Origin: Gammaproteobacteria bacterium
GTDB taxonomy: Bacteria > Pseudomonadota > Gammaproteobacteria > JAPPPA01
Direction: 5' to 3'
Assembly: GCA_028817755.1 (NCBI GenBank)
Contig: JAPPPA010000087.1
Location: forward strand, 1-32,113
Length of the DNA stretch: 32,113 nucleotides
Shown: positions 1 through 15,738 of the stretch, piece by piece
How the letters are laid out: every line of letters starts with the position of its first letter
Position numbering within the stretch: position 1 is the stretch's first letter
Notes under the pieces: model-generated
Told to the model about the DNA's origin: nothing
Databases searched by the model: none
Seen by the model: the letters and a program-made list of their open reading frames with translations, nothing else
Made by a program: the position numbers and the translations under genes

Positions 1-253
1 GCGCGGTACGGCTCGCGTAAGTACGGGATGGACAGATTTAGCCGTTGTTCTATTCCGTAAGCCCTGGCAGTTAATAATCGCCTTATTACACCTTTAGTTA
101 TAAATAAAACAGTAATTAACTAATCGCTCTAATTTGTTGATTTATAACCATTGCGGTGGCTAATCCAAGTGATTAATTTACCCTCGTCCAAAATTGACCG
201 ATCGGTCTGTTTATTTTGGGGGATAACTTGCATAGCATTTGGGGAAGCTAACA

Positions 254-2119
254 ATGGAACAGCAACGCACTCGTACCGCGTTCAGAAAAGCCCGTGCCAT
301 TCTGGCAGGCGCGGCATTAACAGCCTTGGCAACAGGCTGTGTCAGCACACACAACGTCAACATGGAAGAAGATCGCGCAGCGAATTTGCGTAATGACATG
401 TTGCGCCTAGCGGAAAGCCGCATGGTGCTGCCGGATAAACCACTCACCCTGCATGAGGCCATTAACTTTGCCTTGGTGCATAACCTTGATTTGCGTGTTG
501 CCGAGCTAGAGCAAGAAATTGCTGAAGATGATGCTTTGGCGGCTCGTTTGGGCATGTTGCCTAATTTGAACCTGAACGCTTCTCGCACGCGTCGCTCAGA
601 AGATCGCACGCAGGATTACATCGACGCTGATACCGGCGTGGTGCAAACCTCTAACTCGTTGAGTTCGTTCAAAAACTCCTTAACCGGTGATCTGAGCCTG
701 ACTTGGAACGTGCTGGATTTTGGTATGTCTTGGGTGCGCTCTCGCCAAGCGGGTTATCAAACCCGGATTGCTGATTTACAGCGCTTACGCCAAGCACAGT
801 TACTTGCACTGGAAATCACCAACTCTTACTGGCGCGCTGCGCTTGCAGAAGACAGTCTAGATTACATTCGTGCGGTAGCCGCCGAGATGCGCACGCAGAA
901 AGACATGATTGAGCGCAGCGTAGCCGAGAAGCGCGTTGATCCCATCATGGCAAAAGACGCACAGCGTCGAATTGTTGAACTAGAAATCACAATCCGGGAT
1001 TTGCAGGCAGAAGTGTCTAGCTCGCGGATCGAACTGTCGCGCTTGATGGGTCTACGTCAGGGCCAAGACTTCAAATTAGAGCGTGAAGCGATTCGCCCTA
1101 TTTTGGCTGGGTTGCCGCGCCCGCATCAGCTGGATATCGAGTTGCTTGAAGGTCATGCGCTACACAACCGTCCTGAGCTATTCGCGGCAGACTTCCAAGA
1201 GAAAATCAGCCGCGACAATGTGCGGGCTGAACTGCTTTCAATGTTTCCCGATCTGACCTTTGGCATCGGCCGTCACTACGATGACAACCGCTTATTGCAT
1301 GCGAACGAATGGAACACCGTGGGCGTAAACTTTGGTTGGAATCTACTTAAGCTACCTACCATTAGTAAGCGTAAAGCGGCACGTGAGCACGAGCTAGAAC
1401 AAAGCCAATACGAGCGCCTGCAAACTACCGTTGGTATTGTGACGCAGGTTCATCTGTCGTTATTGGACTACGCGGTAAAAGTTGATCGCATGATGTTGTT
1501 GGAAGAGTCATACACCTTGGCGCATGACCTTTTGAGCATGGTGCGTGAGCACAACCGCGTCGGCAAAATTTCGGATTTGGCCGTTACCGAGCGCGTGCTG
1601 CAAGACCTTGCTGCGAAGATGCGTCGCGATCAGTCGGTTGTTGATGTCATGGTCTCGTACCGTCGCATGCTGTCTAGTTCGGGTGTTGACCTGTCTTACT
1701 GGAATTCCGACCTAAACGAGCTGGCATTGCTGAAACAAGGTGGCAATAAAGCGCTAGCTGAGAGCGTCAAGCCAGAGGCTCGCATTGTTGCGCACCACAA
1801 CGGTTTACAAGAAACCAGCAACTTATTCCCGTGGACGCTACAAGTTGGCGCCTATCGCAATGAAGCCGCATTAGCGCCACAGCTAGAGAAGGCTAATGCC
1901 TTAGTCCGTCGCTTGCTTAACCGCGCAGAGCCAGTTGTTACACGTCACCCCAATCCGGGCGGCGGTAATATTTTCCGTGCCCGTTATCTTGGTTTCACTG
2001 AGAAACAAGCACGCCATGCCTGTGATGTGCTGAAAAGCAAAGGTATGGATTGCTGGGTAGACAAGCACGACCCAACCCTACGCGTTGGCCAACAGGTTGC
2101 ACTGCATAGCAACCGCTAA
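254..2119 (+). CDS. TolC/OEP-family outer-membrane channel lipoprotein with a C-terminal SPOR (peptidoglycan-binding) domain
   Basis: The track ORF is 239..2119 and starts on TTG. I prefer the ATG at 254, which follows a GGGGAAG Shine-Dalgarno-like run. The N-terminus MEQQRTRTAFRKARAILAGAALTALATGC is a signal peptide plus a lipobox Cys. The long helical, L/R/Q/E-rich body is typical of TolC-type outer membrane factors (motifs such as LTLHEAINFALVHNLDLRVAELE and ALHNRPEL). The last ~80 aa fit a SPOR pattern. Confidence 0.8.
   Translation: MEQQRTRTAFRKARAILAGAALTALATGCVSTHNVNMEEDRAANLRNDMLRLAESRMVLPDKPLTLHEAINFALVHNLDLRVAELEQEIAEDDALAARLGMLPNLNLNASRTRRSEDRTQDYIDADTGVVQTSNSLSSFKNSLTGDLSLTWNVLDFGMSWVRSRQAGYQTRIADLQRLRQAQLLALEITNSYWRAALAEDSLDYIRAVAAEMRTQKDMIERSVAEKRVDPIMAKDAQRRIVELEITIRDLQAEVSSSRIELSRLMGLRQGQDFKLEREAIRPILAGLPRPHQLDIELLEGHALHNRPELFAADFQEKISRDNVRAELLSMFPDLTFGIGRHYDDNRLLHANEWNTVGVNFGWNLLKLPTISKRKAAREHELEQSQYERLQTTVGIVTQVHLSLLDYAVKVDRMMLLEESYTLAHDLLSMVREHNRVGKISDLAVTERVLQDLAAKMRRDQSVVDVMVSYRRMLSSSGVDLSYWNSDLNELALLKQGGNKALAESVKPEARIVAHHNGLQETSNLFPWTLQVGAYRNEAALAPQLEKANALVRRLLNRAEPVVTRHPNPGGGNIFRARYLGFTEKQARHACDVLKSKGMDCWVDKHDPTLRVGQQVALHSNR
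1832..2065 (+). other. SPOR-like domain-coding segment at the 3' end of the TolC-like gene
   Basis: The translation is WTLQVGAYRNEAALAPQLEKANALVRRLLNRAEPVVTRHPNPGGGNIFRARYLGFTEKQARHACDVLKSKGMDCWV. This matches the beta-alpha-beta-beta-alpha-beta SPOR signature: (W/Y)xxQVGAF/Y..., an aromatic-R-V/Y strand, then A..C..L...G..C.V. Confidence 0.6.
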
Positions 2120-2151
2120 GCAGTCCTACCAACAAAGCTAGGGGAAAGGCT

Positions 2152-5100
2152 ATGCGTAAATTAGAAGAACGCGTTGTATTAGATGCGGCAGTAGGGGTGA
2201 TTGCCGATGATGTTGTAGCGCAAGAAAACTCCATCAAAGCTGGTGGTTTAGAAGCGAACAACAATCAAGGCACGCAAGTTGATGAGGGCGCCACGCGCCC
2301 TATCACTTCGGCAGAGCTTGAATTTAGTTCTGACCGGCCAGCTCAAAACATCGTATACACCATTACCGACCTGCCTGATCACGGGCAGGTTTTGCTCGAC
2401 GGCAGTGCGACCAACAGCTTTACGCAAGCCGATATTAATAATGGCCTCGTAACGTACGAACACGATGGTGGCGAAGGCACTGGTGACGATGGCTTTAGCT
2501 TTGATGTTAAGGATGACCTGACCGGAGAGGCGTCAGGGCAGTTCACTATTTTTGTGAACCCGATTAACGATGAAAACCCAGATGTTGACCTTAATGGCAG
2601 CAACTCAGGTCGTGGTTTTATCGCTAACTTTGCTGAGGATAGTGACCCCATCGCTATTGTTAATGCTGGCCAAGTTGATATTACTGACCCTGACTCAGAC
2701 GCTACCAGTTTGCAGAGCCTATCGATTCGCCTAACCAACAACCTCAATGGCCAAGAAGAATTTCTGCAGGTGGATGTTGGTAATACCGGGATTGAAGCCA
2801 ACCTTAGTTACAGCAACGGCGAGGCCCTGCTAACGCTTAGTAATGAAGCCAGCATTGAAGCTTATGAAGCGGTTCTGAATACATTGGAATACGGCAATAC
2901 CGCTAACAACATCGACACCACAGGCCGAGTGTTAGAAGTCACTGCGCTTGATGGTGTTAATACCAGTGATATTTCCACCATTTTGATCAACTTGAGTGCG
3001 AGCAACGACGCCCCCGCGTGGTCGCACCCCGATAGCCAAGCCGCGGTAGAAGAAACGCCAACACTCATCAGTGGCATTACCGTGGCCGACCCTGATGCGA
3101 ATGGTGGTGAGTTAGATGTGGTGTTGAGTGTGAGTAATGGCACGCTTTCCATCCCCGCTGACAGCGGCTTGTCAGTGCTAGAGGACAACAACACCGCGCA
3201 GTTGCATTTGCGTGGCACGGCAGATCAGCTAAATACCGCATTGGCCGAATTGCGTTATACCGGCGGCCAAGATTTTAATGGTGTTGATACGCTTAACCTG
3301 TCAGTAAACGACCTAGGCAATACCGGCGGGCCTGCGCTAACGGCAACCAGCAGTATGGAAATTGACCTGTCTGTTCCAGAGGTCAGCGCCGTTAACGACG
3401 CGCCGGTGATTAGCGCACCTAGTGCCATCACGATTAATGAAGATAACAGCGTAACGTTTACCGACATTACTATCAGTGATGTTGATGCCGGTGATGACGT
3501 GGTACGCGTGCAGTTATCCGTGCCGGTGGGTAGCTTAAGCTTGCCGAGCATTCAGGGCCTAAACCTAATCCAAGGTGACAATGGCGCCGGGCCAACGCTT
3601 GAGTTTGAAGGTACGCTAAACGACATTAACGCCGCCTTAAACGGCTTGGTATATACGCCGCCGGCAAACTTTGCTGGCTCGGCTCCAATCAATATCAGCG
3701 TTAATGATCAAAGCCAACTTAACCCGGGTGCGTTGACTGATGATCACCAGATTGCCGTTACCGTTGCGCCGCAAAATGACGCGCCGGCTTGGACCAACCC
3801 GGCTAGCCAAGTAGCTGTTGAAGAAACCCCGACTTTGCTGAACGGCATTTCCCTCGCCGATATTGACGCTGCAGATGGCGTGCTAGATGTCACCCTAACG
3901 GTATCGCATGGCACCTTAAATCTGCCGCAGGGTAGTTTGTCGCTATTAGAAAATAACGACAGTGCCAGTATTCATTTACAGGGTGACTTAGCGAGCATTA
4001 ACCAAGCATTAACCGAGCTACGCTATACCGGTGGCCAGGACTTTAATGAGCTCGACGAGCTGCAACTAGTTGTTAACGACCTAGGCAATACCGGTGGTGG
4101 CGACCTAGTTGCGAATAGCAGTATGGTGATTGACCTGTCTAACGCCAGTGTCAGTGCGGTGAATGACGCGCCCGTTATTTCAGCGCCGACCCAAGTTCAG
4201 ATCAATGAAGATGCCTCCGTTACCTTTACTGATATCAGCATTAGTGATGTTGATGCGGGTGACGACTTGGTACAAGTAACACTGAGTACGGTTGATGGCA
4301 CATTAAGTTTGCCGCAAACGGATGGCCTTAACTTCAGCCAGGGTAATGGCAACAACAACCCCACTTTGGTGTTTGAAGGCACGGTTGAGGATGTAAACGC
4401 GGCCTTGGACGGCCTAGTTTTTACCCCTGCCGTTGACTTCAATGGTGAAGCGGCCATCAACTTGAACGTTGACGATCAAAGCCAGCTTAACCCGGGTGCA
4501 ATGAATGATAGTCACACGATTACCGTCAATATTGCGCCGCAAAATGATGCGCCAGAGCTAGTTACTAATGACACGCTGACGATTGTTGATCCGTCTTCTG
4601 CGGTAACGATTACTAGCGATTTATTGTCGAGCAGCGATGTGGATCATGCTGATACCGAGGTTCAGTTCACGATTACGGCTTTGCCTGAAAATGGTGAGCT
4701 GTTATTGGATGGTCAGCCGCTAGCTGAAGGCGACATGTTTACTCAGGCTGATATTGATGCCGGTCTGCTTACTTACGTGCCATTGAATAATGGTGCCTTG
4801 GCAGATGGGTTTGAGTTTCAGTTAAGCGACCCTGACACCGTCGGCGCGCAAGCCGCTAGCGGCACACCGTTTCAAATTGTTTATGCTGCGCCGGGTAAGG
4901 CACTGGGTGGTGTATCAACACCAGAGAATTACACCGCAGCAGAAGATCTATTTGCTTATCCACCTTATGAGCCGGTTCAGTCGCAGCCGCTTGTTGCTAG
5001 CGAATTTGGGCAAGGCGATAACGGTTTGGATATGAGCCGTCCGGACTATTTTGAAAATGCCGTGAATGGTATTAATGGTTTGGAAGCGTCACTGGAAAAC

Positions 5101-5502
5101 AGCGCCTTGGCTGCGAGCGGCATCAATGGGGCCAATGCTAGCGGTGGCATGACAGATGCTTACGGCAGTGGTGAAAGTATTTTGCGTAGCTGTAGCGAAG
5201 TAGCTGGTCTAGGTGGATGCAATTTAGCGGCGAGCGACAGCGTAGAAAGCCGCTTGTCGAATACTCAACCGGAATTGCTAGGTCGCTATTTGGATGACGG
5301 CCTGTTGACCACGAGTACCGCCGCGCCGGGCACGCAGCAAGGCATTGTTGAGCCAGAGCTATTAACAGCCGCTGCTGAGTGCAACCACTTAAATGAAGCG
5401 CCACAAACCTTTGCCGGTGACTATCAGCAACAGCAAGCTGAGAGTTGTCCAGTAGAAGACCAAGCCAGCAATGCAGCAGCTGAGGCTAGCGCTGGGGCTT
5501 AG
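2152..5502 (+). CDS. Large acidic cadherin-like / NDAP tandem-repeat surface protein (1116 aa); likely secreted adhesin-type substrate
   Basis: The ATG at 2152 follows AGGGGAAAGG. The N-terminus MRKLEERVVLDAAVG resembles the LE(P/E)R(I/V)xxDAA start of giant non-Sec repeat proteins and has no hydrophobic signal peptide. There are two flanking cadherin-like modules (ITSAELEFSS...YTITDLPDHGQVLLDG...FTQADINNGLVTYEHDG and ITSDLLSSSDVDH...FTITALPENGELLLDG...FTQADIDAGLLTYVP). The central modules are delimited by the recurring NDAP motif. The protein is D/N/T/S-rich and has no Cys until the last ~110 aa. Confidence 0.85.
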   Translation: MRKLEERVVLDAAVGVIADDVVAQENSIKAGGLEANNNQGTQVDEGATRPITSAELEFSSDRPAQNIVYTITDLPDHGQVLLDGSATNSFTQADINNGLVTYEHDGGEGTGDDGFSFDVKDDLTGEASGQFTIFVNPINDENPDVDLNGSNSGRGFIANFAEDSDPIAIVNAGQVDITDPDSDATSLQSLSIRLTNNLNGQEEFLQVDVGNTGIEANLSYSNGEALLTLSNEASIEAYEAVLNTLEYGNTANNIDTTGRVLEVTALDGVNTSDISTILINLSASNDAPAWSHPDSQAAVEETPTLISGITVADPDANGGELDVVLSVSNGTLSIPADSGLSVLEDNNTAQLHLRGTADQLNTALAELRYTGGQDFNGVDTLNLSVNDLGNTGGPALTATSSMEIDLSVPEVSAVNDAPVISAPSAITINEDNSVTFTDITISDVDAGDDVVRVQLSVPVGSLSLPSIQGLNLIQGDNGAGPTLEFEGTLNDINAALNGLVYTPPANFAGSAPINISVNDQSQLNPGALTDDHQIAVTVAPQNDAPAWTNPASQVAVEETPTLLNGISLADIDAADGVLDVTLTVSHGTLNLPQGSLSLLENNDSASIHLQGDLASINQALTELRYTGGQDFNELDELQLVVNDLGNTGGGDLVANSSMVIDLSNASVSAVNDAPVISAPTQVQINEDASVTFTDISISDVDAGDDLVQVTLSTVDGTLSLPQTDGLNFSQGNGNNNPTLVFEGTVEDVNAALDGLVFTPAVDFNGEAAINLNVDDQSQLNPGAMNDSHTITVNIAPQNDAPELVTNDTLTIVDPSSAVTITSDLLSSSDVDHADTEVQFTITALPENGELLLDGQPLAEGDMFTQADIDAGLLTYVPLNNGALADGFEFQLSDPDTVGAQAASGTPFQIVYAAPGKALGGVSTPENYTAAEDLFAYPPYEPVQSQPLVASEFGQGDNGLDMSRPDYFENAVNGINGLEASLENSALAASGINGANASGGMTDAYGSGESILRSCSEVAGLGGCNLAASDSVESRLSNTQPELLGRYLDDGLLTTSTAAPGTQQGIVEPELLTAAAECNHLNEAPQTFAGDYQQQQAESCPVEDQASNAAAEASAGA
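3004..4542 (+). repeat. In-frame tandem duplication inside the large CDS: two ~770-bp units (3004-3774 and 3775-4542), each made of an A module (NDAPAW...) and a B module (NDAPVISAP...)
   Basis: Unit boundaries are read from the sequence: AAC GAC GCC CCC GCG TGG at 3004, AAT GAC GCG CCG GCT TGG at 3775, AAT GAT GCG CCA GAG at 4543. The B modules start at 3394 and 4162. The units align residue for residue, for example ELRYTGGQDFN, VNDLGNTGG, SAVNDAPVISAP, ISDVDAGDD, DQSQLNPGA. By eye roughly two-thirds of residues are identical. Confidence 0.9.
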
Positions 5503-7565
5503 TGGAAGGCTTACTAAACACCGTTCAGATTGAGCAGCGTGTGGCGGCAATGCTTGCCGCCCTGCCTTTGCCATGGCAGCCACTGCGGCCTGAGTTGGTG
5601 TTGCATCCAAGTGGTGGTGGCAGTTCGGTGTTGGAGGATCCGCAGTCCGGTCAGCTATATGATTTGAACCAAGCTGAAGCGTTAGCGCTACGGCGCTTGG
5701 TCAGCGCAAATGAACAGGAGCTGGTAGGTCACTGCAAGCAGCTTTTGTCTGACAACACACTAACGATAGCCGCTTTGCAGCAGTTGTTAATTCAGTGCCA
5801 ACAAAGTGGCTTATGCCGTGGTCAGTCGCCAGCACCATCGTCTGCAGCGTGGTCACCCTATTGGCGCTTACCGCTTTGGCGGCCGCAGCGTTTTCTTGAA
5901 TCAACATTGCCACTCATGCAGCCGCTGTTTAGTCCGGCTGCTGGGTACGTGATTTTCATTCTGGGCTTGATCGGCATAGCAGGCATTGCGCCGCAGCTGG
6001 ACTTATATGTGGGTACGGTTAATTACCTCACTACAGCCACTGGAGCGTTCTGGTTTGTACTGTGTTTGCTGTTGCTAAAGCTGAGTCATGAGCTTGCACA
6101 TGCTTTCACCGCAGTGAGGCACGGTGTGCCTGTGCGCCAAATAGGTGTGTTGTTTATTTTGATTTGGCCGTTGTTGTATACCGATGTGACTGACGCGTGG
6201 AAGTTAAAAAATCGCAGGCAGAGAGCGGCTATTGCGTTGGCAGGTATTCGCTTTGAGTTAGCGGTAGCAGCGGTTGCGGCTTGTTTCTGGCTATTTTTAC
6301 CAGACGGCTTACTGCGTAGTTTGGCATTTATATTCTCGGGTACGGCTTTAGTCAGTTCTTTGCTGATTAACGCCAACCCTCTGATGCGCTTTGACGGTTA
6401 CTACGCATTAATGGATTTATGGGGTATTGCCAATCTGCAGCAGGTTGCTGGCGAGCATTGCCAAGCGTGGCGTCGGGCGAAAATGTGGGGCTCGGTAGCA
6501 CCGCAGAAACAGCCGAGGTTGCTGATGTATGGCTACGCAGCCTGGGTGTGGCGCTGTTTAATCGCCGTCACTATGACGCTAGTTAGCTGGCAAATATTAG
6601 GGCCCGCTGCGGGCATATTAATCGCTGTCTTTTTTGCGCGGTCGGTGCTTTGGCAGCCGTTGCGCCAAGAGCAGCAGTATTTAAAACAGTCGGGAGCGTG
6701 GCGCAGTATGCGGGCAAAAAAAACAGGGCTGGTAGCCATGCTGGTGTTGGCCGTATTTTGTGTGCCAATGCCACAAAAGCAGCGTTTGGCGGCAGTTGTT
6801 TCTGCTGCTGATCAATATCAACACAGCTTACCGGTGCCGGCGACACTTACAACTGTATTGCCCGAGTTGGGGCAAACCTTTGCCTCTGGCGACTTACTTG
6901 CTGTGTTTGATAGCGCTTCCCTACAGCGGGATAAGGCATTGGCCGAGCAGGAAAAGTCGTTGCGCCAACGCCAATTGGACGCGTTGTTGCTAACAGGTGA
7001 ACAAGGCGGCAAGCGGGCAACGGCAGCGGCAGAGCTCAGCCGGGCGAGCCAGCAATTGCTCGCAATCGAAGAAAAATTAGCTGCCCTAACCCTGCAGTCT
7101 GAATCGCAACAAGTGGTGCTATCTCGTCATGACGACTTAAAGGTAGGTGACACCCTTCAAGCGGGCGATGCCTATTTAGTTACCGCTAACCCAGAAGCCG
7201 CGACGATTGATATTTATTTGTCGCAAAAGCAGCTGAAGCAATGGCAGCAACTGGAACAGCCGCAGCTAGAAATGGAGTTGCGGTTGCCGAATGGGCAGCG
7301 GCACCGGCTGTTTTTGGATATCGCAGCTTACAGCCCAAGTATTCAGTTCAATGTGCCTGCTGTTTTGTTTGACCTAGCTGGCGGCCCTATTCCATCCCGC
7401 CCAGCGGCGGGTCATGCCTCGGGTGGGCAGGCATTAGGCAGTTGGTATCAACTACGTGTACCAGCCAATATCGCGGCGCCGTATTTGCAAATGCCTGCGA
7501 CAGCGTCGTACGTCGGCGAATGGCGTAGCTTAATTTCGCGCTTGGTCGCTCAGTTCAGTTTGTAA
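5502..7565 (+). CDS. Fusion protein: PqqD-like N-terminal region + peptidase M50 (site-2 protease) transmembrane core + HlyD-type membrane-fusion (periplasmic adaptor) C-terminal half
   Basis: The GTG at 5502 overlaps the upstream TAG by 1 nt (TAGTG); an alternative ATG lies at 5550. HELAH (in SHELAHAFTAV) sits in a hydrophobic segment, and NANPLMRFDGYYAL supplies the NxxPxxxxDG second S2P motif, with several TM helices between them. The C-terminal ~270 aa have a lipoyl-like hairpin (FASGDLLAVFD ... LKVGDTLQAGDAYLV) flanking a coiled coil (LQRDKALAEQEKSLRQRQLDALLL...LLAIEEKLAAL), as in HlyD/MFP proteins. The N-terminus LVLHPSGGGSSVLEDPQSGQLYDLNQAEALALRRL resembles a PqqD/RRE-type fold; that part is inference. 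Confidence 0.8.
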   Translation: MEGLLNTVQIEQRVAAMLAALPLPWQPLRPELVLHPSGGGSSVLEDPQSGQLYDLNQAEALALRRLVSANEQELVGHCKQLLSDNTLTIAALQQLLIQCQQSGLCRGQSPAPSSAAWSPYWRLPLWRPQRFLESTLPLMQPLFSPAAGYVIFILGLIGIAGIAPQLDLYVGTVNYLTTATGAFWFVLCLLLLKLSHELAHAFTAVRHGVPVRQIGVLFILIWPLLYTDVTDAWKLKNRRQRAAIALAGIRFELAVAAVAACFWLFLPDGLLRSLAFIFSGTALVSSLLINANPLMRFDGYYALMDLWGIANLQQVAGEHCQAWRRAKMWGSVAPQKQPRLLMYGYAAWVWRCLIAVTMTLVSWQILGPAAGILIAVFFARSVLWQPLRQEQQYLKQSGAWRSMRAKKTGLVAMLVLAVFCVPMPQKQRLAAVVSAADQYQHSLPVPATLTTVLPELGQTFASGDLLAVFDSASLQRDKALAEQEKSLRQRQLDALLLTGEQGGKRATAAAELSRASQQLLAIEEKLAALTLQSESQQVVLSRHDDLKVGDTLQAGDAYLVTANPEAATIDIYLSQKQLKQWQQLEQPQLEMELRLPNGQRHRLFLDIAAYSPSIQFNVPAVLFDLAGGPIPSRPAAGHASGGQALGSWYQLRVPANIAAPYLQMPATASYVGEWRSLISRLVAQFSL

Positions 7566-7580
7566 TCGCTAGGCTATCGA

Positions 7581-7611
7581 TTCAGAACATCCGGCATAGG
7601 CCCCGTATAAT
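7581..7611 (+). promoter_or_regulatory. Candidate sigma70 promoter for uup (TTCAGA-N19-TATAAT)
   Basis: A perfect TATAAT lies at 7606-7611, 31 nt upstream of the uup start. The -35 hexamer is weak and the spacing is suboptimal. Confidence 0.3.
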
Positions 7612-7642
7612 GCGCCGCCTAAGCTATTAAAGGGTCTGAGTC

Positions 7643-9505
7643 TTGTTGCTGTCATTGCGCGAGGTGTCGCTGGCGTATAGCCAAACACCGTTACTCAATC
7701 AGGTTAATTTCCAAGTCGATGACGGCGAGCGTGTGTGCTTAGTCGGCCGTAACGGCGCCGGCAAGTCGAGCCTGATGAAAATCATCGCCGGTGATATTGA
7801 AGCCGATGCTGGTGAGCGAAACACCAAAGACCAGCTACGCGTGGCGCGCTTGGTGCAAGACGTGCCGCACGACATTAGTGGCACGATTTACGACGTTGTC
7901 ACCGCAGGCCTTGGCGGTATTGGCGAGTTGATTAACCAATATGAACAAGCCGCCGGGCGAGGTGATTCAGCCGATGTGTTACTACCGCTGCAGCAGCAGA
8001 TTGAAACCCAAGGTGGTTGGGACGCTAAGCGCCAAGTAGATGAAGTGCTGTCGCGTATGCAGCTCGACGGTATGACGCTGTTTGAAAACCTCTCTGGGGG
8101 TTTAAAGCGCCGTGTACTGCTAGCGCAAGCGTTGGCTAGTGACCCGCAATTGCTGCTGTTAGATGAGCCCACTAACCACCTCGATATTGAAGCCGTGCAG
8201 TGGCTAGAAAACTTCATCCGCAACGGCAGTTTTGCGGTGGTGTTTGTCACCCACGATCGGGCCTTCTTAGATGCCATTGCCACACGTATTGTCGAGGTCG
8301 ATCGCGGCAATCTGCATAACTTCCCCGGCCGCTATAGCTTGTACCGAGAACGCAAAGCCGAGCAGCTGGAAATTGAGCAAAAGAACAAAGCCGACTTCGA
8401 CAAAGTGCTGGCAGAAGAAGAAGCCTGGATTCGTCGCGGTGTTAAAGCCCGTACCAAGCGCAATATTGGCCGCGTAAAACGCCTAGAAGATTTACGCGAA
8501 GAAGCTGATGGCCATCAGAAATACCAAAAACGTGCCAGCATTAAGGCGCAAATGGCAGAGAACACCGGCAAGCGGGTTATTGAAGCTAAAAACCTGAGTT
8601 ACAGCATTGCCGGTAAACCACTGGTTAAAGACTTCACCCTCAAAATTCTACGCGGCCAAAAGATTGGCTTGATGGGTCCAAATGGCTGCGGCAAAACCAC
8701 CCTGCTGCGTTTGTTGTTGGGTGAGTTAGAAGCGGATAGTGGCACCCTCATTGAAGGCACTAACCTACAAGTGGGTTATTTCGACCAAACCCGCAAAGCG
8801 CTTAAGCTCGATAAAACCGCGGCATGGAACGTTGCCGAAGGCTACGAGAAAATTGATTTTGATGGCCGCGCCTTGCACGTGTTGGGCTATTTAAAAGCCT
8901 TCCTGTTTACGCCAGATCGCGCTAACTCTTTGGTAGAGGTGTTGTCAGGTGGTGAACGCAACCGTCTACTCTTGGCACGCCTCTTTGCCCACCCTGCCAA
9001 TGTCTTGGTGATGGACGAGCCCACTAACGACCTCGACGTTGAAACGCTCGAGTTATTAGAAGATTTGGTAAACAACTTCGCCGGCACCGTGTTGCTGGTG
9101 TCGCACGACCGGGCCTTTGTGAATAACGTGGTCGACTCGCTGATTGTGTGGGACGGCGACGGCGAGTTTGATTACTTTGTTGGTAACTACGATGACTGGT
9201 TACGCCAACGTAAGCAGGAGCAAAAGGCGCAGCAGGCCAAAGCCGTGCCTGTGGCTAAACCGGCGGCAAAAAAATCCACCAAACTCAGTTACAAATTGCA
9301 GCGTGAGTTAGATCAGCTCCCCGCCACTATTGAAGCCTTAGAAGAAGCTATCGAGGCCGCTGGTGAAGCGATGGCGCAGCCGGAGTTTTTCAAACAGTCG
9401 GCCGACGCCATTACCGCGGCTCAGGCGACACTGGCGGAGCAGCAAGCTGAATTAGAAAACGCATATACCCGCTGGGAAGAATTAGAGGCACAGAAAAATG
9501 GCTAA
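7643..9505 (+). CDS. uup: ABC-F family ATPase Uup (two ABC cassettes, C-terminal coiled-coil DNA-binding tail, no membrane domain)
   Basis: Collinear with E. coli Uup along the whole length as I recall it: VCLVGRNGAGKSSLMKI, LSGGLKRRVLLAQAL, LLLLDEPTNHLDIE, GLMGPNGCGKTTLLRLLLGEL, LSGGERNRLLLARLF, LVMDEPTNDLDVETLELLE, KLSYKLQRELDQLP, ending WEELEAQKNG. The start is TTG with AAGGG upstream. Confidence 0.93.
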   Translation: MLLSLREVSLAYSQTPLLNQVNFQVDDGERVCLVGRNGAGKSSLMKIIAGDIEADAGERNTKDQLRVARLVQDVPHDISGTIYDVVTAGLGGIGELINQYEQAAGRGDSADVLLPLQQQIETQGGWDAKRQVDEVLSRMQLDGMTLFENLSGGLKRRVLLAQALASDPQLLLLDEPTNHLDIEAVQWLENFIRNGSFAVVFVTHDRAFLDAIATRIVEVDRGNLHNFPGRYSLYRERKAEQLEIEQKNKADFDKVLAEEEAWIRRGVKARTKRNIGRVKRLEDLREEADGHQKYQKRASIKAQMAENTGKRVIEAKNLSYSIAGKPLVKDFTLKILRGQKIGLMGPNGCGKTTLLRLLLGELEADSGTLIEGTNLQVGYFDQTRKALKLDKTAAWNVAEGYEKIDFDGRALHVLGYLKAFLFTPDRANSLVEVLSGGERNRLLLARLFAHPANVLVMDEPTNDLDVETLELLEDLVNNFAGTVLLVSHDRAFVNNVVDSLIVWDGDGEFDYFVGNYDDWLRQRKQEQKAQQAKAVPVAKPAAKKSTKLSYKLQRELDQLPATIEALEEAIEAAGEAMAQPEFFKQSADAITAAQATLAEQQAELENAYTRWEELEAQKNG

Positions 9506-10166
9506 TGACGCAACAATGAAAACCGCCTTGGTTCTAGGCGGTAGCGGGCTTATCGGCCGTATGCTGATTGACGAGCTCTTGGCTTCTGGTCACTACGGCA
9601 AAGTTACCGCCTTGCTGCGAAAAGAACTCAGCGCTGCGCCAGCAGAGTTAGATCAACAGATTGTGGATTTTGAGTCGCTATTAACTGAGCAGTTACCACT
9701 GGTAGCCGATGACGTGTTTTGCTGTTTAGGCACTACGCAGAAAACGGTAGGTGGAGATAAAGATAAGTTCTATCGCATTGATCACGATTACCCAGTGGAA
9801 CTCGCAAAACTGGCTCAAGCCGGCGGCGCTAAGCGTTGTTTTGTTGTTTCTGCTACCGGCGCTAACTCTAAGAGCCGCTTCTATTACAACCGCGTCAAAG
9901 GTGACATGGAGCGCGACCTAAAGACACTGGGATTTGATGCGTTGCATATCTACCAACCGTCGTTATTGATTGGTTCGCGAGAGCATTTAGATCAGCTAAA
10001 TCGCGGTGGCGAATTTGTGGGCCAAAAGTTAATGCCGCTAATGAATCCGTTTCTACAGGGCAGCTTGCGCAAGTTTCGTCCAACGCATGCTACGGCGGTA
10101 GCGCAGGCGATGTGTGCAGATTCAGGCCGCGATAGCCGCGGTGTGGAAATTCATCATTTCGAATAG
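9498..10166 (+). CDS. YraR-like NAD(P)H-binding (atypical SDR / HTATIP2-like) protein
   Basis: Rossmann motif LVLGGSGLIGR. The blocks VFCCLGTT, FVVSATGANSKSRFYYNRVKGDMERDL and YQPSLLIG match E. coli YraR. The ATG at 9498 overlaps the uup stop by 8 nt; an alternative ATG lies at 9516. Confidence 0.8.
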   Translation: MANDATMKTALVLGGSGLIGRMLIDELLASGHYGKVTALLRKELSAAPAELDQQIVDFESLLTEQLPLVADDVFCCLGTTQKTVGGDKDKFYRIDHDYPVELAKLAQAGGAKRCFVVSATGANSKSRFYYNRVKGDMERDLKTLGFDALHIYQPSLLIGSREHLDQLNRGGEFVGQKLMPLMNPFLQGSLRKFRPTHATAVAQAMCADSGRDSRGVEIHHFE

Positions 10167-10195
10167 CGAAGCGCTAAGCCGCTAGCTGGCTTGTG

Positions 10196-10813
10196 TTAAT
10201 CGCGCGCCTCGGCCATGCGCTCGCTGCCGAGCATAATCATGCGTAATTGCAGCACTAAGCGAGCAGCCAACTCAGAGCGGCTGTCGGCCGACATGCTAAG
10301 CGCATTACCGGCGCCGCCAAAGGTGATCGCCACAATGGCGTCGGCCGTGGTGTAAGCGTCGGCGATGGGGCGCTCCTTCGCTTGGCCTAAGCGTTCTAAA
10401 TCTTCGGCAAGCTCGTTTGTGAAGTAACGGATTTCGGTGCGAATGGCTCGGCGCCAGCTTTCCGAGCCGGTGCCCTGTTCACGCAGCAGCATGTGGAACA
10501 GCTGTGGCTCGCGGGCAATATGATCAAACAATGCGTTTACCGATACGTCCAACACCGACTGGCTCGTCACTAGCTTTTGGCGTGCTTCGCGCATCACGGT
10601 ACGCAGGCTTTGCCCGGCAACATCTACTAGGGCCAGGCCAAGATCTTCCATATCGTCGAAGTGCCGATAAAAAGCGTTGGGTGCCAAGCCAGCTTCGCGC
10701 GCTACCTCACGCAGGCTTAAAGAGCCAAAACTACGCTGTTGATTGAGTAGGCCTAAAGCCGCGTCAATTAGGTTCTGACGTGTTTGTTGTTTCTTGTCTG
10801 TGCGCGTGCTCAT
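10196..10813 (-). CDS. desT: TetR-family repressor of unsaturated fatty-acid synthesis (FabR/DesT type)
   Basis: SFGSLSLREVAREAGLAPNAFYRHFDDMEDLGLALVD and LVLQLRMI are near-identical to the E. coli FabR HTH and C-terminal blocks. The gene is divergent from a reductase-desaturase pair, as in the Pseudomonas desT-desCB locus. Confidence 0.85.
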   Translation of the reverse strand: MSTRTDKKQQTRQNLIDAALGLLNQQRSFGSLSLREVAREAGLAPNAFYRHFDDMEDLGLALVDVAGQSLRTVMREARQKLVTSQSVLDVSVNALFDHIAREPQLFHMLLREQGTGSESWRRAIRTEIRYFTNELAEDLERLGQAKERPIADAYTTADAIVAITFGGAGNALSMSADSRSELAARLVLQLRMIMLGSERMAEARD

Positions 10814-10843
10814 AACGCAACCTCATCAATGGTTTGCGCATTT

Positions 10844-10861
10844 AGTGTACGCATGTCCACT
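10844..10861. promoter_or_regulatory. Putative DesT/FabR operator copy 1 (AGTGTAC-GCAT-GTCCACT), upstream of desT
   Basis: 18-bp dyad with 6/7 arm complementarity, embedded in the longer TTTAGTG...CACTAAA symmetry at 10841-10864. It is 15/18 identical to the second copy at 10972-10989. Confidence 0.6.
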
Positions 10862-10933
10862 AAAGCTGTTGCCCTAATTTACTGTAAAAACAGTTACTTG
10901 GCTATTTTCACGCCTCAGCGTTTGTACAAAAAA

Positions 10934-10963
10934 TTGACAGTTTATGTGCTGCCGCTCTAATCT
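10934..10963 (+). promoter_or_regulatory. Candidate sigma70 promoter of desCB (TTGACA-N18-TAATCT)
   Basis: A consensus -35 TTGACA lies at 10934-10939 and a -10-like TAATCT at 10958-10963. Operator copy 2 begins 9 bp downstream of the -10. Confidence 0.5.
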
Positions 10964-10971
10964 CTCATTTC

Positions 10972-10989
10972 AGTGTACGCGTGTACACC
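10972..10989. promoter_or_regulatory. Putative DesT/FabR operator copy 2 (AGTGTAC-GCGT-GTACACC), overlapping the predicted desC transcription start
   Basis: Same 18-bp motif as 10844-10861, and its position is consistent with repression by occlusion. Confidence 0.6.
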
Positions 10990-11014
10990 AATGTGACAAT
11001 TGTGAGACAAAGGC

Positions 11015-12127
11015 ATGAATAAGCAGACTAGCTGGTTAGACAAACGCCGGGGCCAAGTAAAGCACTGGGGGCAGGCTTTAGAACAAAGAATGATGGCAGC
11101 GCAGTGGCGCTCGGCGTCGGTCGACATGTTGTCGTTCGCGTTTGAGCCGCTTTGGGGCGCTAAACAAATTCCTGCGCGCGTTGATGCTGTTGAGGCCGAA
11201 GAAGGCGCTACCCACATCTGGTTACGCCCTTCGTTACGCTGGGCTTGGCCAAAGCCGGGTCAGTTTGTGTCGGTGTCGGCACAGCATGATGGTGAGGTAG
11301 TGACGCGTTGTTACAGCTTGTCGGCGCTAGATGCTGCCAACGACCGTATTCGTCTTACGGTGTGCTCCGTAAACGATGGTCTTTTCTCGAATAACATTGC
11401 GCCGCAGTTGGCTGTTGGCACGGTGTTGAAACTATCCCCCGCCACGGGTGACTTTGTTGCCCCGAAACATGCCGCGCCTTTGTGGCTATGTGCGGCAGGC
11501 TCTGGCATTACGCCAATGTTGCCGTTGGCGGAGGCGGCCTTAGCGCAAGGTCAGGCGGTTCGTCTTTTAGCGGTACAACGCGAGGCGCAGCCAGTGTTGT
11601 GGCAAGAGTGGTTGGCCTTACAGCAACGTTACCCGCAGCTATTGCGTTGCGAGCTTTGGTGTAGCGCTGAACAAGGCCGCCCACAAATCCAGGACTTCTC
11701 AGATCGTTTAAACGCGTTGCCTAACAACGTCGAGGTGTTTGTATGCGGCAATAGCGGCTTCCGCGATAGCCTGCAGCAGGCAGTGCAGAATGCCGGCTTG
11801 CCAATGGCGCAGCTGCATATGGAAAGCTTTTATCAAACTAACACGGCGCCTGCCGTAATGGACTCGGCGGATGTGGTGGCGAAAGTTAGTTTGAGCGATG
11901 GCCGTGAAATTCCGGTACGCGAAGGCGAAACCATTTTGCAGGCGGCGAAATCGGCTGGTGTAGCGATGACACATTGTTGCGGCCAAGGTGTTTGCCGCAG
12001 CTGTGAAACCCGCAAAGTGTCGGGCGTGGTGGAAAACCTACAAACCGGTTTAAAGCAGCTGCGTGACGGTGAGTGGATTCTGCCCTGCGTGAGCTTGCCC
12101 ATGGGCAACGTGGAGCTGGCGGTATGA
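11015..12127 (+). CDS. desC: Ferredoxin-NAD(P) reductase-type oxidoreductase with C-terminal plant-type 2Fe-2S ferredoxin domain (desaturase electron donor)
   Basis: FAD motif RCYSLS, NAD motif LCAAGSGITPMLPL, and the 2Fe-2S ligand pattern CCGQGVCRSCETRK...LPC. The stop overlaps the next start (ATGA). Confidence 0.85.
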   Translation: MNKQTSWLDKRRGQVKHWGQALEQRMMAAQWRSASVDMLSFAFEPLWGAKQIPARVDAVEAEEGATHIWLRPSLRWAWPKPGQFVSVSAQHDGEVVTRCYSLSALDAANDRIRLTVCSVNDGLFSNNIAPQLAVGTVLKLSPATGDFVAPKHAAPLWLCAAGSGITPMLPLAEAALAQGQAVRLLAVQREAQPVLWQEWLALQQRYPQLLRCELWCSAEQGRPQIQDFSDRLNALPNNVEVFVCGNSGFRDSLQQAVQNAGLPMAQLHMESFYQTNTAPAVMDSADVVAKVSLSDGREIPVREGETILQAAKSAGVAMTHCCGQGVCRSCETRKVSGVVENLQTGLKQLRDGEWILPCVSLPMGNVELAV

Positions 12128-13191
12128 CCACGAAAATAGAATGGCCGGTAGAAAAGCTGGATGCGCTGCAAAAAGACCTCGATGAGGTCTTGGCGAAAGA
12201 AATGGCCGACTTGGGTGAAGCTGACGCGCGCCATTTAAAAAAAATCACGGGTGTTGCTCGTTATTGCCATTGGGCAGGTCGTGGCCTGCTGCTATTTAGT
12301 TTTGAGCCGATTGGTTGGGCGCTCGGCGTGGCGCATTTGTCGGCCTACAAAATTCTAGAGAACATGGAAATCGGCCATAACGTATTACATGGCCAATATG
12401 ACTTTTTGGATAACCCTAAATACCAGTCCAAAACCTACGAATGGGATATGGCGCCGACCGCCGCTGGCTGGCAGCACGAACATAACTATTTGCATCACAC
12501 CTATACCAATGTGATCGGTAAAGACCGTGATTTTGGCTATGGCATTTTTCGCATGTCGGATGATATTCCCTGGCGACGAAAGCATTTATTGCAACCGGCT
12601 TATAACGTGTTGAATGCCTTGTTCTTTCAATACGCTATTGCTAATTACTGTGCGGGTGATGACGTCAGCATTGCGCAAAAGGACCGCCGCGACCCTAAGT
12701 GGCGCGGTTATATGGGCAAGCAGCTACGCCATCTACTGAAAGAGTATGTGTTCTGGCCGCTGTTGGCGGGGCCGTTCTTTATGAAAGTGGTGGCAGGCAA
12801 CTTTGCGGCTGACATTATTCGCAATATGTGGGCCTTTGCGGTGATCTATTGTGGGCATTTCGGCACAGATGCGCACACATTCGACGATATTGGCGACAAA
12901 AAAGAACATCGTGGTCGCTGGTATCTGCGCCAACTAATGGGTTCTTGCAATATTAAGTCGGGCAAGTTGATGCAAATTGCTAGTGGCCATCTGTCGCATC
13001 AAATTGAACACCACCTGTTTCCAACCCTACCGGCATGGCGTTACCCGAAAGTAGCTCCACAAGTGCAGGCGGTGTGTGAAAAGCATGGTGTTTATTACAA
13101 CAACCGCCATATGACCACGCAGTTATTTGGTGCTTGGCGCCGAATAGTGAAGTACGCCTTGCCGACGCCGAGTAAGGTGGCCACGGCTTAG
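12124..13191 (+). CDS. desB: Membrane acyl-CoA (delta-9-type) fatty acid desaturase
   Basis: Three histidine boxes: HNVLHG, HEHNYLHH, HQIEHHLFP. The ATG at 12124 (MTTKIEWPVEKLD) is translationally coupled to the desC TGA; the longer track ORF from 12073 lies inside desC. Confidence 0.85.
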   Translation: MTTKIEWPVEKLDALQKDLDEVLAKEMADLGEADARHLKKITGVARYCHWAGRGLLLFSFEPIGWALGVAHLSAYKILENMEIGHNVLHGQYDFLDNPKYQSKTYEWDMAPTAAGWQHEHNYLHHTYTNVIGKDRDFGYGIFRMSDDIPWRRKHLLQPAYNVLNALFFQYAIANYCAGDDVSIAQKDRRDPKWRGYMGKQLRHLLKEYVFWPLLAGPFFMKVVAGNFAADIIRNMWAFAVIYCGHFGTDAHTFDDIGDKKEHRGRWYLRQLMGSCNIKSGKLMQIASGHLSHQIEHHLFPTLPAWRYPKVAPQVQAVCEKHGVYYNNRHMTTQLFGAWRRIVKYALPTPSKVATA

Positions 13192-14256: not shown

Positions 14257-15738
14257 TTGGGGTTATCAAAAGTATTTACCCGGGCCTTAAAGGGCTTGGA
14301 TGCGCCAGCAGTGGTAGTTGAAGTGCATGTGTCTGGCGGCTTGCCGACGATGAACTTAGTGGGCTTGCCAGAAGCGGCTGTACGAGAAGCGCGTGATCGC
14401 GTGCGCAGCGCTATTCAGAACAGTGGTTTTGAATTTCCTGCGAGTCGTGTCACGGTTAATTTGGCCCCCGCCGATATTCCCAAAGAAGGCGGTGCTTTTG
14501 ATGTGCCCATAGCGCTGGGTATTTTGGCTGCGACAGGTCAATTGAATGCAGATGCGTTGGATGATGTTGAGGTGCTGGGTGAGCTGGCATTAAACGGTGC
14601 GCTGCGACCAATTAAAGGCGCTTTGCCGGTAGCGATGGCGGTTGCCAAGGGCCAAAGGGCGTTGGTTTTGCCAGAAGCCAGTGCTGCCGATGCCGCCTTG
14701 GTACAGGATTTGTCAGTGCACTATGCTCATCATTTGGCCGATGTGGTGGCGGCGTTTAATAGTGGCAAAGCACTGTCTCGGTTCACGCAGAGCGAGCCGA
14801 GCAACGAGCTGTTGTCGCAGTTAGATATGGCTGATGTTAAAGGCCAACAGCAAGCGAAGCGGGCTTTAATGGTTGCTGCTGCGGGGAGTCATAACGTGTT
14901 GATGGAGGGGCCGCCGGGCTCTGGAAAATCGATGCTAGCCAAGCGTTTGCCCAGTATTTTGCCGACCTTGAGTAATGCTGATGCGTTGGAGGTGGCAGCC
15001 ATTCGTTCTTTGTCTGGCGCGCCGATTTCAGCAGACGAGATGCATCTGGCGCCATTCCGCTCGGTGACATCATCCGCTTCTCAGGTTGCTCTTTTGGGAA
15101 GCAAAAATCCGGGTGAGATCACCTTGGCGCATGCTGGCGCATTGTTCATGGATGAACTGGTTGAGTTTCCCCGCGCATGCTTGGAGGCGTTAAGAGACCC
15201 GTTAGAGAACGGCTATATCGATATTTCTCGTGCGGCGTATAAGTATCGGTATCCATCTCGCTTCCAGCTTGTGGCAGCGATGAATCCTTGCCCTTGCGGC
15301 GATCCCGACAACTGTCGCGATACGCCAGATCAAATTGCACGTTATCGGGCAAAGCTATCTGGCCCGATATTGGACCGTATTGATGTGCATTTGCATGTGC
15401 CGAGAGTGAAATATCAGGAACTGAAAGATTCGTCGTCTGGTAGCAACAGTAAAACGCTGCGTGGCCAAGTGGTTGCCGCACGTGAGCGACAGTTGGCACG
15501 ACAAGGTAAAACCAATGCTTGGCTTAGCGCGGCGGAAATTGAAAAAATTGCTAATCGCAGCGAGGCGGCGGAAACCTTATTGGAAAATGCGATGACAAAG
15601 CTTGGCTTAACGGCGCGTGGTTATCATCGTTTATTGAAAGTTGCACGAACGATTGCAGATTTAGATGCTAGTGAACAAATTGCAGCTGAACATATGGCGG
15701 AAGCGATTGGTTATCGCCAGCTAGACCGTTGGCACTAG
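14257..15738 (+). CDS. comM: ComM/YifB-family Mg-chelatase-like AAA+ ATPase (competence-associated helicase family)
   Basis: VEVHVSGGLPTMNLVGLPEAAVREARDRVRSAIQNSGFEFP...VNLAPADIPKEGGAFDVPIALGILAA matches the YifB N-terminus. Walker A is GPPGSGKSM, and the C-terminal block is GYHRLLKVARTIADLD. The start is uncertain: the track GTG at 14215 lies inside the upstream terminator stem, so I use the in-frame TTG at 14257. Confidence 0.88.
   Translation: MGLSKVFTRALKGLDAPAVVVEVHVSGGLPTMNLVGLPEAAVREARDRVRSAIQNSGFEFPASRVTVNLAPADIPKEGGAFDVPIALGILAATGQLNADALDDVEVLGELALNGALRPIKGALPVAMAVAKGQRALVLPEASAADAALVQDLSVHYAHHLADVVAAFNSGKALSRFTQSEPSNELLSQLDMADVKGQQQAKRALMVAAAGSHNVLMEGPPGSGKSMLAKRLPSILPTLSNADALEVAAIRSLSGAPISADEMHLAPFRSVTSSASQVALLGSKNPGEITLAHAGALFMDELVEFPRACLEALRDPLENGYIDISRAAYKYRYPSRFQLVAAMNPCPCGDPDNCRDTPDQIARYRAKLSGPILDRIDVHLHVPRVKYQELKDSSSGSNSKTLRGQVVAARERQLARQGKTNAWLSAAEIEKIANRSEAAETLLENAMTKLGLTARGYHRLLKVARTIADLDASEQIAAEHMAEAIGYRQLDRWH

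Follow-up and report, generated by a model that had tools for sequence, protein, structure and literature searches.

The open reading frame (ORF) at positions 5502–7565 (+) of contig JAPPPA010000087.1, from a Gammaproteobacteria bacterium (GenBank assembly GCA_028817755.1), encodes a 687 aa protein that combines three modules: an N-terminal domain resembling PqqD and the RiPP (a peptide made on the ribosome and then modified post-translationally) recognition element (RRE), an M50 metalloprotease of the site-2 protease (S2P) type, and a membrane fusion protein (MFP) module. Coordinates are those of the window, the whole 32,113 nucleotide stretch of the forward strand that was analysed. On balance, the sequence and the structural models would favour a role for this protein as the inner-membrane core of a dedicated apparatus that spans the cell envelope and exports the product of the neighbouring gene, a giant or large repeat protein. 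What is said here of the function of the module is drawn from sequence, predicted structure and synteny. An original prediction, made by a model from the letters of this stretch, had named the reading frame, two protease motifs and an N-terminal string, and all of these are present where it placed them.

Domain architecture of the fusion protein

The AlphaFold2 (AF2) model of the whole protein, made with a 64-sequence family alignment, has a predicted local distance difference test score (pLDDT) of 92.3 and a predicted template modelling score (pTM) of 0.75. Its secondary structure runs from three strands and three helices at aa 33–101, through membrane helices at aa 129–420, to a final beta-rich region with a helical hairpin between its two beta parts.

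The N-terminal module occupies aa 1–110 (5502–5831, +), with a beta3-alpha3 core at aa 33–101; the string VLHPSGGGSSVLEDPQSGQLYDLNQAEALALRRL, quoted in the original prediction, lies at aa 33–66. Modelled on its own (AF2, pLDDT 88), the domain has strands at aa 33–37, 41–46, and 51–55 and helices at aa 57–67, 71–83, and 89–101, which is the winged-helix arrangement of an RRE. When a profile of 32 homologous N-terminal domains was compared with PDB sequences, it matched TfuB1 (6jx3_B, E = 5.4e-5) and TbiB1 (5v1u, E = 6.5e-4), with a weak match to PqqD itself (3g2b, E = 0.41). TbiB1 and TfuB1 are lasso-peptide leader-binding proteins. The top Foldseek matches of the domain are TbiB1-leader complexes, TfuB1, SuiB, LynD, CteB, and TigE, all of them RREs, and TbiB1 (5v1u/5v1v) is matched with a probability of 1.0, a target-normalised TM-score of 0.63–0.67, and E values of 0.017–0.03. 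Among the N-terminal homologues, Pfam PqqD is the commonest weak match (5 of 32, best 0.0037). The proposal that the first 100 residues or so have a PqqD/RRE-type fold is therefore supported by the structural matches and, more weakly, by the family profile.

The second module is a seven-transmembrane (TM) M50/S2P domain at aa 129–420 (5886–6761, +). It scores 44.5 bits against Pfam Peptidase_M50 (PF02163, cut-off 27.2) over aa 185–289, which places it within that family. The zinc-binding and catalytic motif HELAH is at aa 196–200 (6087–6101), at the cytoplasmic end of TM2, and NANPLMRFDG, with the Asp that is the third zinc ligand, is at aa 290–299 (6369–6398), at the cytoplasmic end of TM4. 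The original prediction had put these motifs about 95 residues apart, the first of them inside a hydrophobic helix, with further TM helices following; the spacing is 94 residues, and both motifs lie within, or at the ends of, the helices that AF2 predicts at aa 179–206 and 270–290. A beta-hairpin that would re-enter the membrane (aa 214–227) comes directly after the HExxH helix. In an alignment of 64 relatives with 24–55% identity, residues H196, E197, H200, N290, P293, F297, and D298 are invariant. Since the catalytic and zinc-binding residues do not vary across these homologues, the protease is expected to be catalytically intact and presumably active.

The third module is at aa 421–687 (6762–7562, +) and is composed of barrel-sandwich/lipoyl halves, an alpha-hairpin and a beta-barrel, the layout of an MFP. 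Foldseek matches the C-terminal half to MexA, AcrA, MacA, ZneB, and EmrA in the PDB over about 270 columns (E 5.6e-11 to 1e-7, probability 1.0), and many of the homologues carry precomputed Pfam BSH_CzcB, BSH_CusB or PF25984 domains. Two antiparallel helices in the AF2 model, aa 472–498 and 503–527, interrupt the beta-rich region and form a coiled-coil hairpin (aa 472–527, 6915–7082), presumed to be the tip that docks onto an outer membrane factor (OMF). The HlyD-like layout with a coiled-coil hairpin, as originally proposed, is thus what both the model and the structural search return.

The loops predicted to be cytoplasmic contain 4, 6, 6, and 2 Lys and Arg residues (family means 8.1, 5.4, 7.2, and 3.5), and the three predicted to be periplasmic contain none (0/0/0). 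Because the positive charges are confined to the cytoplasmic loops, the protein would have its N-terminus inside, seven TM segments, and its C-terminus outside, with the RRE in the cytoplasm, the active site on the cytoplasmic side of the membrane, and the MFP half at aa 421–687 in the periplasm. This charge distribution agrees with the proposal of a membrane-embedded protease joined to a periplasmic arm. Both of the folds on which the original prediction depended, PqqD-like and MFP-like, are found, and the HlyD-like half is placed outside the cytoplasm.

The GTG start codon at 5502 overlaps the upstream 1116-codon gene by one base, its first G also ending that gene's TAG stop, and a GGGG stretch lies 4 nt upstream of the GTG. 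The start is ambiguous, an in-frame ATG at 5550 being a possible alternative. Use of this ATG would remove the first 16 residues, which AF2 predicts as an N-terminal helix with lower pLDDT.

A large family encoded in a conserved gene module

The fusion is not a one-off, and the sequences show it to be part of a large conserved family. More than 400 relatives of about 700 aa were returned by a word-indexed search, many with precomputed Pfam domains for both M50 and the MFP barrel-sandwich, under names such as 'putative peptide zinc metalloprotease', 'HlyD family...', and 'biotin/lipoyl-binding protein'; RefSeq annotation of the fusion proteins is similarly generic. When 1.84 billion representatives were searched exhaustively with phmmer, 1,839 matches (50%-identity clusters) were obtained at E ≤ 1e-30. 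In a scan of GTDB species representatives, encoding loci were found in at least 593 species. The lineages include the Alpha-, Gamma- and Zetaproteobacteria, Desulfobacterota, Nitrospirota, Campylobacterota, and Chlamydiota, as well as plasmids of Escherichia coli.

The gene neighbourhood was compared across 86 loci, in which ORFs were labelled by phmmer and all-against-all clustering; ORF calling was crude and took the longest ORFs. The usual module consists of genes for an OMF (approximately 500–700 aa), a short MFP (approximately 260 aa), a long MFP (approximately 450 aa), and the M50-MFP fusion (approximately 710 aa), with a giant ORF on one or both sides. The giant ORFs are from 800 to over 3,300 aa and are cadherin-like, Calx-beta or immunoglobulin (Ig)-like. 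Among these loci, the OMF was labelled in 55, MFP paralogues in 78 and the M50-MFP in 83, and no further family was found by clustering near the module in more than 6 loci.

In L001, whose fusion protein is 56% identical, the genes run in the order short MFP, long MFP, OMF with a SPOR domain, cadherin protein, M50-MFP, and Uup. At the start of the window, the frame-2 translation of nucleotides 2–97 (+), RGTARVSTGWTDLAVVLFRKPWQ... to its stop, aligns with the C-terminus of the 414 aa MFP of L001 (ERGTARVDAGWTLLGITIFRKPWQ... to its stop). These nucleotides are the 3' end of a long MFP paralogue gene (GAF-like domain, one TM, MFP), and the window therefore holds the same module, cut by the end of the contig. 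It is followed by a TolC-like OMF gene at 239–2119 (+), whose 626 aa product carries a lipoprotein signal (LATGC) and, at its C-terminus, a SPOR domain, and by the gene at 2152–5502 (+) for a cadherin-like repeat protein of 1116 aa, the candidate substrate. The OMF matches Pfam OEP (4.6e-43), SPOR (2.1e-7), and, below the cut-off, TIGR01844 type_I_sec_TolC (1.2e-20); the cadherin-like protein matches Pfam Cadherin_3 (3.3e-38), Cadherin_4, and Big_9. A TolC-like partner is thus encoded in the same operon as the periplasmic MFP half, and in 55 related loci.

Lipobox and SPOR, a peptidoglycan-binding domain, are an unusual combination for an OMF, and the L001 orthologue shares it. The long MFP, present in L001 (4143–5387) and about 55 other loci, begins with a cytoplasmic domain of about 145–220 aa followed by one TM segment. 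This domain is weakly but consistently GAF-like, with Pfam GAF matches in 6 of 17 members and matches to GAF domains in the PDB at E values of 0.006–0.04, which suggests that the apparatus is regulated by a small molecule. In L005, from Desulfonema ishimotonii, a SapC-family gene (PF07277, 8779–9495) lies between the M50-MFP gene and the giant, a Calx-beta/cadherin protein with an N-terminal DUF4347. The name SapC comes from the S-layer secretion locus of Campylobacter fetus.

The classical role of S2Ps is regulated intramembrane proteolysis, and the canonical motifs and membrane-reentrant beta-hairpin of the fusion protein are in keeping with it. The protein might accordingly be imagined to cleave an anchored regulator such as an anti-sigma factor, in the manner of RseP or SpoIVFB, with the MFP serving merely to localise it to an efflux-type complex. 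This is highly improbable given the composition of the module, in which there is no conserved sigma/anti-sigma pair or membrane regulator in the neighbourhood, an RRE, a leader binder, stands in place of the PDZ or CBS sensor domains, and linkage to leader-bearing giants is tight.

The N-terminal LEPR-type motif of the giant proteins

The cadherin-like protein of the window starts MRKLEERVVLDAA, and a LEPR-type leader motif, LEERVVLDAA, was found by regular expression at aa 4–13 of this start, MRKLEERVVLDAAVGV (2161–2190, +). The protein has no Sec-type signal, no hydrophobic or TM segment, and no RTX GGxGxD repeats, and the giants that adjoin the module elsewhere likewise lack a Sec signal. 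A logo of the giants shows a variable basic stretch, then L-x-A-L-E-[PSQE]-R-[IV]-[MVL]-[FL]-D-[GA]-A-[AG]-x-A-T, then a region rich in acidic residues, Q, S, and T.

The core expression, [LIVM]E.R[IVLMF].[FLMY]D[GAS][AGS], has 38 matches in 34 loci, all of them near the N-terminus of a giant ORF next to the module and 3–124 residues beyond its first possible start (38 of 38). There are no matches elsewhere in the 2.64 million six-frame residues of the loci. Four positions of the expression are fixed by construction, and the independent evidence is solely the conservation of the flanks and the exclusivity of position. A motif-bearing giant is adjacent in 33 of the 86 loci, and a further 17 have an adjacent giant whose N-terminus is beyond the DNA that was fetched; in 27 the flanking DNA is too short for a call, and 8 lack the motif or show a variant of it (for example HEKRIVLDGG in L009). 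Since the module is paired with a giant bearing the same N-terminal motif in 33 of the 86 loci, the original prediction's suggestion of the upstream protein as substrate is independently supported, and this protein can be taken as a candidate substrate of the protease.

The motif corresponds to the NCBIfam entry NF012209, 'LEPR-XLL domain', which has a cut-off of 17 bits. Of five proteins tested, two score above this (22.7 bits for the L083 giant and 18.5 for the L039 giant), with the giants of L038 and L051 at 12.7 and 13.9 bits. All five carry the motif as the core expression defines it. In full-text searches of the literature, which were not exhaustive, so that an account may have been overlooked, LEPR-XLL appears only as an annotation label, and there is no description of the RRE-M50-MFP fusion or of its link with LEPR-XLL. 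A search for LEPR/DUF4347 proteins that took the N-terminal part of the E. coli giant as query returned only 9 short fragments.

Some of the giants also have a C-terminal motif, F/L-[ST]-x-Q-[LMVI], about 25–35 residues from the end and followed by an amphipathic tail. It is seen in L019, L034, L039, L051, L052, L054, L059, L068, L079, L083, L085, and others, with no clean match in the window protein, and may act as an anchor or as a further signal. In three loci from Nitrospira/Nitrospirales (L022, L028, and L036) there are two separate giants with LEPR leaders, and in L028 and L036 these are on opposite sides of the module, so one apparatus may serve several cargos.

Linked transporters and peptide genes

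No conserved ATP-binding cassette (ABC), resistance-nodulation-division (RND) or major facilitator superfamily transporter was found near the module in the 86 loci. When all of the ORFs in these loci were scanned with phmmer for the ABC nucleotide-binding domain (NBD), 9 soluble ATPases were found, none of which has a fused transmembrane domain (TMD) and none of which is conserved; no linked ABC exporter was found at these loci. A type I secretion system (T1SS) is defined by an ABC transporter that energises the inner membrane, which the module does not have, together with an MFP and a TolC-family OMF, which it does. Nor does the window cargo have the RTX repeats of T1SS cargo or the C-terminal motif of some giants that might stand for an uncleaved signal; here the conserved element is N-terminal.

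In the window, a Uup-type ABC-F ATPase is encoded at 7643–9505 (+), 77 nt downstream of the M50-MFP gene. It was considered as a hidden motor and rejected, as the adjacency is limited to 4 close loci and the protein is soluble, without TM segments. Uup is probably unrelated to the module.

The N-terminal region of the fusion protein also matches the NCBIfam daptide intramembrane metalloprotease, daptide_HExxH (NF041824), aa 33–379 aligning with profile positions 9–358 of 379 (E = 1.9e-47), and, weakly, YydH/LiaK. At 162.2 bits, the match falls well short of the equivalog cut-off (300), and the protein is a homologue of the daptide protease family, not a member. The homology, which extends over the N-terminal 380 residues, would suit a RiPP- or bacteriocin-type exporter in which the RRE and M50 mature a small leader peptide that is then exported by the MFP and OMF, the giants being coincidental neighbours or having some other explanation; RREs are also otherwise known from RiPP pathways. 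Such an exporter is nonetheless very unlikely. Clustering of intergenic ORFs of 25–69 aa within 3 kb of the modules gave none that is conserved beyond near-identical loci, so that there is no conserved candidate for a small-peptide substrate, and conserved RiPP tailoring enzymes are likewise lacking. In the window, the operon has gaps of only 32 nt and an overlap, with no room for a peptide gene, and it is the giants themselves that carry the leader-like motif. Like the signalling S2P, the small-peptide exporter is poorly supported.

On IncF plasmids of E. coli there is a five-gene module consisting of genes for a giant Ig-like protein, TolC, two MFPs, and the M50-MFP (L086/L087, NZ_CP022155.1 118682–138427; L088/L089, NZ_CP081687.1). 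The giant is a 4,457 aa Ig-like protein that starts MTTIKNRRLRPRAHRFALESRQLFDGAAL, a start that includes ...FALESRQLFDGAAL, with the leader ALESRQLFDGAAL. On one such plasmid, pABWA45_1, the giant is WP_088765934.1 and the M50-MFP is WP_001192442.1. The five genes are bracketed by the insertion sequences (ISs) ISKpn26 and IS1B and occur in 24 complete genomes out of 5,426. The module looks self-contained. On a 69-kb plasmid that carries it there is no annotated ABC exporter, which is suggestive only, as the PLSDB gene table is incomplete. OI-28 of enterohaemorrhagic E. coli (EHEC) is unrelated, being a canonical ABC T1SS.

Proposed route of export

In the route proposed for the adjacent giant, the RRE would bind, in the cytoplasm, the N-terminal LEPR-type leader of the cadherin-like protein, either just made or still being translated, and would present it to the M50 site, where it would be clipped at the inner membrane face. 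The pairing of the RRE with motif-bearing giants supports such binding indirectly. Together with the two paralogous MFPs, probably as a mixed ring, the MFP module would dock onto the OMF, and the cargo would leave the cell N-terminus first. Energy might come from the proton-motive force, from threading coupled to translation, from extracellular folding of calcium-binding repeats, or from an unlinked ATPase. A tentative extension of this, from the same sequences and models, is that the RRE-M50-MFP protein, two further MFPs and the OMF make up a new ABC-independent pathway for the secretion of giant surface proteins across the envelope. The LEPR signal would then be read by the RRE and removed by the S2P, and exit would be N-terminus first and possibly co-translational, without a known secretion ATPase. 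There is a partial precedent in EpeP, a RiPP M50 protease for which a double role, in cleavage and in export of its peptide, has been proposed (PMC10885120).

Several points weigh against export by this apparatus. The module contains no known polypeptide-conducting channel or motor, and S2P proteases are not known as protein translocators. The window protein taken alone has no Pfam PqqD match and falls short of the cut-off for HlyD_3 (14.5 bits against 22.2, E = 0.063), and for this reason it is profiles and predicted folds that support the assignments of the RRE and MFP. The hairpin has no canonical RLS tip motif (RxxxLxxxxxxS), although this is uninformative either way. Just three residues precede the motif in the window cargo, which scores 12.8 bits (E 0.072) against NF012209 and so is below its cut-off. 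A published giant with the LEPR-XLL domain has C-terminal RTX/serralysin domains as well (PMC10868602), and so some lineages may export their giants by a classical T1SS with a C-terminal signal.

That RTX-bearing giant, and the lack of a motor in the module, would also fit a different division of labour, the main rival reading, in which the adhesin is exported otherwise, for example by an unlinked ABC T1SS that recognises a C-terminal signal, and the assembly holds the LEPR element, tethering the adhesin to the cell until M50 cleavage releases it. This would be a role like that of the LapA retention module with LapG/LapD, with regulatory input from the long MFP's GAF domain. The conserved run of small residues, D-[GA]-A-A, does resemble the di-alanine LapG site, a paralogous MFP does have the GAF-like sensor, and the F[ST]xQ[LM] motif at the C-terminus of some giants might serve as a separate signal. 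Retention and release is even so a rather unlikely account of the module. There is no ABC exporter near the 86 loci, whereas classical T1SS genes for giant adhesins are normally linked to the substrate, as in EHEC OI-28. In addition, an OMF of its own and three MFPs exceed what a tether needs, the IS-bracketed E. coli module looks self-contained, and RTX repeats are absent from the window protein.

Surface megaproteins, giant adhesins among them, drive the formation of biofilms and attachment to hosts, and the only well-understood route for their export from Gram-negative bacteria is, to our knowledge, the ABC-driven type I route with a C-terminal signal. In the family described here, the TolC/MFP conduit is accompanied not by an ABC transporter but by an RRE of the leader-binding kind and an intramembrane protease. 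On balance the fusion would belong to a tripartite, leader-cleaving export machine, and there is a fair, though less than even, chance that this represents a distinct secretion pathway. If this is true, the LEPR-XLL tag would be assigned a function, and recognition of leaders by RREs would extend beyond RiPP biosynthesis to proteins of thousands of residues. It would also pose the sharp question of how a protein of this length passes the inner membrane without a known motor. A tractable model system would be the five-gene module that ISs bracket on IncF plasmids of E. coli.

Comparison with known systems

Among the RiPP M50 proteases (daptide NF041824; EpeP/YydH and LiaK NF058609; TglG/TmoG), it is the daptide model with which the N-terminal 380 residues align over nearly its full length, and, as in the daptide protease, a cytoplasmic N-terminal domain precedes a membrane core with HExxH and NxxPxxxxDG. 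Unlike these proteases, the fusion has about 270 additional C-terminal residues that form the MFP, occurs in diderm bacteria, and has as its partners an OMF, MFPs, and a giant protein rather than tailoring enzymes and a short precursor. RseP, SpoIVFB, and MjS2P share with it the TM-helix HExxH, the NxxPxxxxDG, the reentrant beta-hairpin, and an active site near the cytoplasmic face. Its accessory domains are, in contrast to those of classical S2Ps, an RRE and an MFP instead of PDZ or CBS, and no signalling partner is encoded nearby.

The peptidase-containing ABC transporters (PCATs), such as CvaB/CvaA/TolC for colicin V, combine a cargo leader, a built-in leader protease, and a conduit of MFP and TolC-like protein. 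From the genes and models, the present module resembles them in having leader-bearing cargo, a protease in the inner-membrane component, and an MFP with an OMF. It differs in that the protease is an M50 metalloprotease with an RRE and not a C39 cysteine peptidase, in that there is no ABC TMD or NBD in the module, and in that the leader is LEPR-type and not double-glycine, the cargo has 800 to over 4,000 residues and there are three MFP paralogues.

As in the LapA-LapEBC T1SS, a giant repeat protein resembling an adhesin is encoded beside a dedicated TolC-like OMF and MFP, and, as for LapA with LapG and LapD, an N-terminal element, presumably important for function, is followed by small residues, and N-terminal proteolysis is possible. 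The Lap system differs in having an ABC transporter, a LapG-type periplasmic cysteine protease, and LapD, none of which is in the module; the window cargo lacks RTX repeats, and the protease is intramembrane with its site facing the cytoplasm. In TriABC-OpmH, several MFP paralogues work with one OMF, as they would here, which suggests a hetero-oligomeric adaptor ring. Unlike TriABC-OpmH, there is no RND core, and the M50 domain is the only polytopic inner-membrane component.

Other features of the window

A scan of positions 1–10300 for promoters and terminators gave no informative internal signals, and Rfam and tRNA scans of the window found nothing. A GGDEF diguanylate cyclase is encoded at 15735–16907 (−), about 8 kb downstream of the module, and another is on the module-bearing E. 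coli plasmid (L088, 8006–9388); a link between cyclic di-GMP and the adhesin system would be pure speculation. At 10196–13191, a FabR-like TetR repressor (NF008402, 3.5e-63) is divergent from a pair encoding a ferredoxin-reductase-type protein and a fatty-acid desaturase. This is ordinary regulation of lipid desaturation, and the arrangement in L001 is identical.

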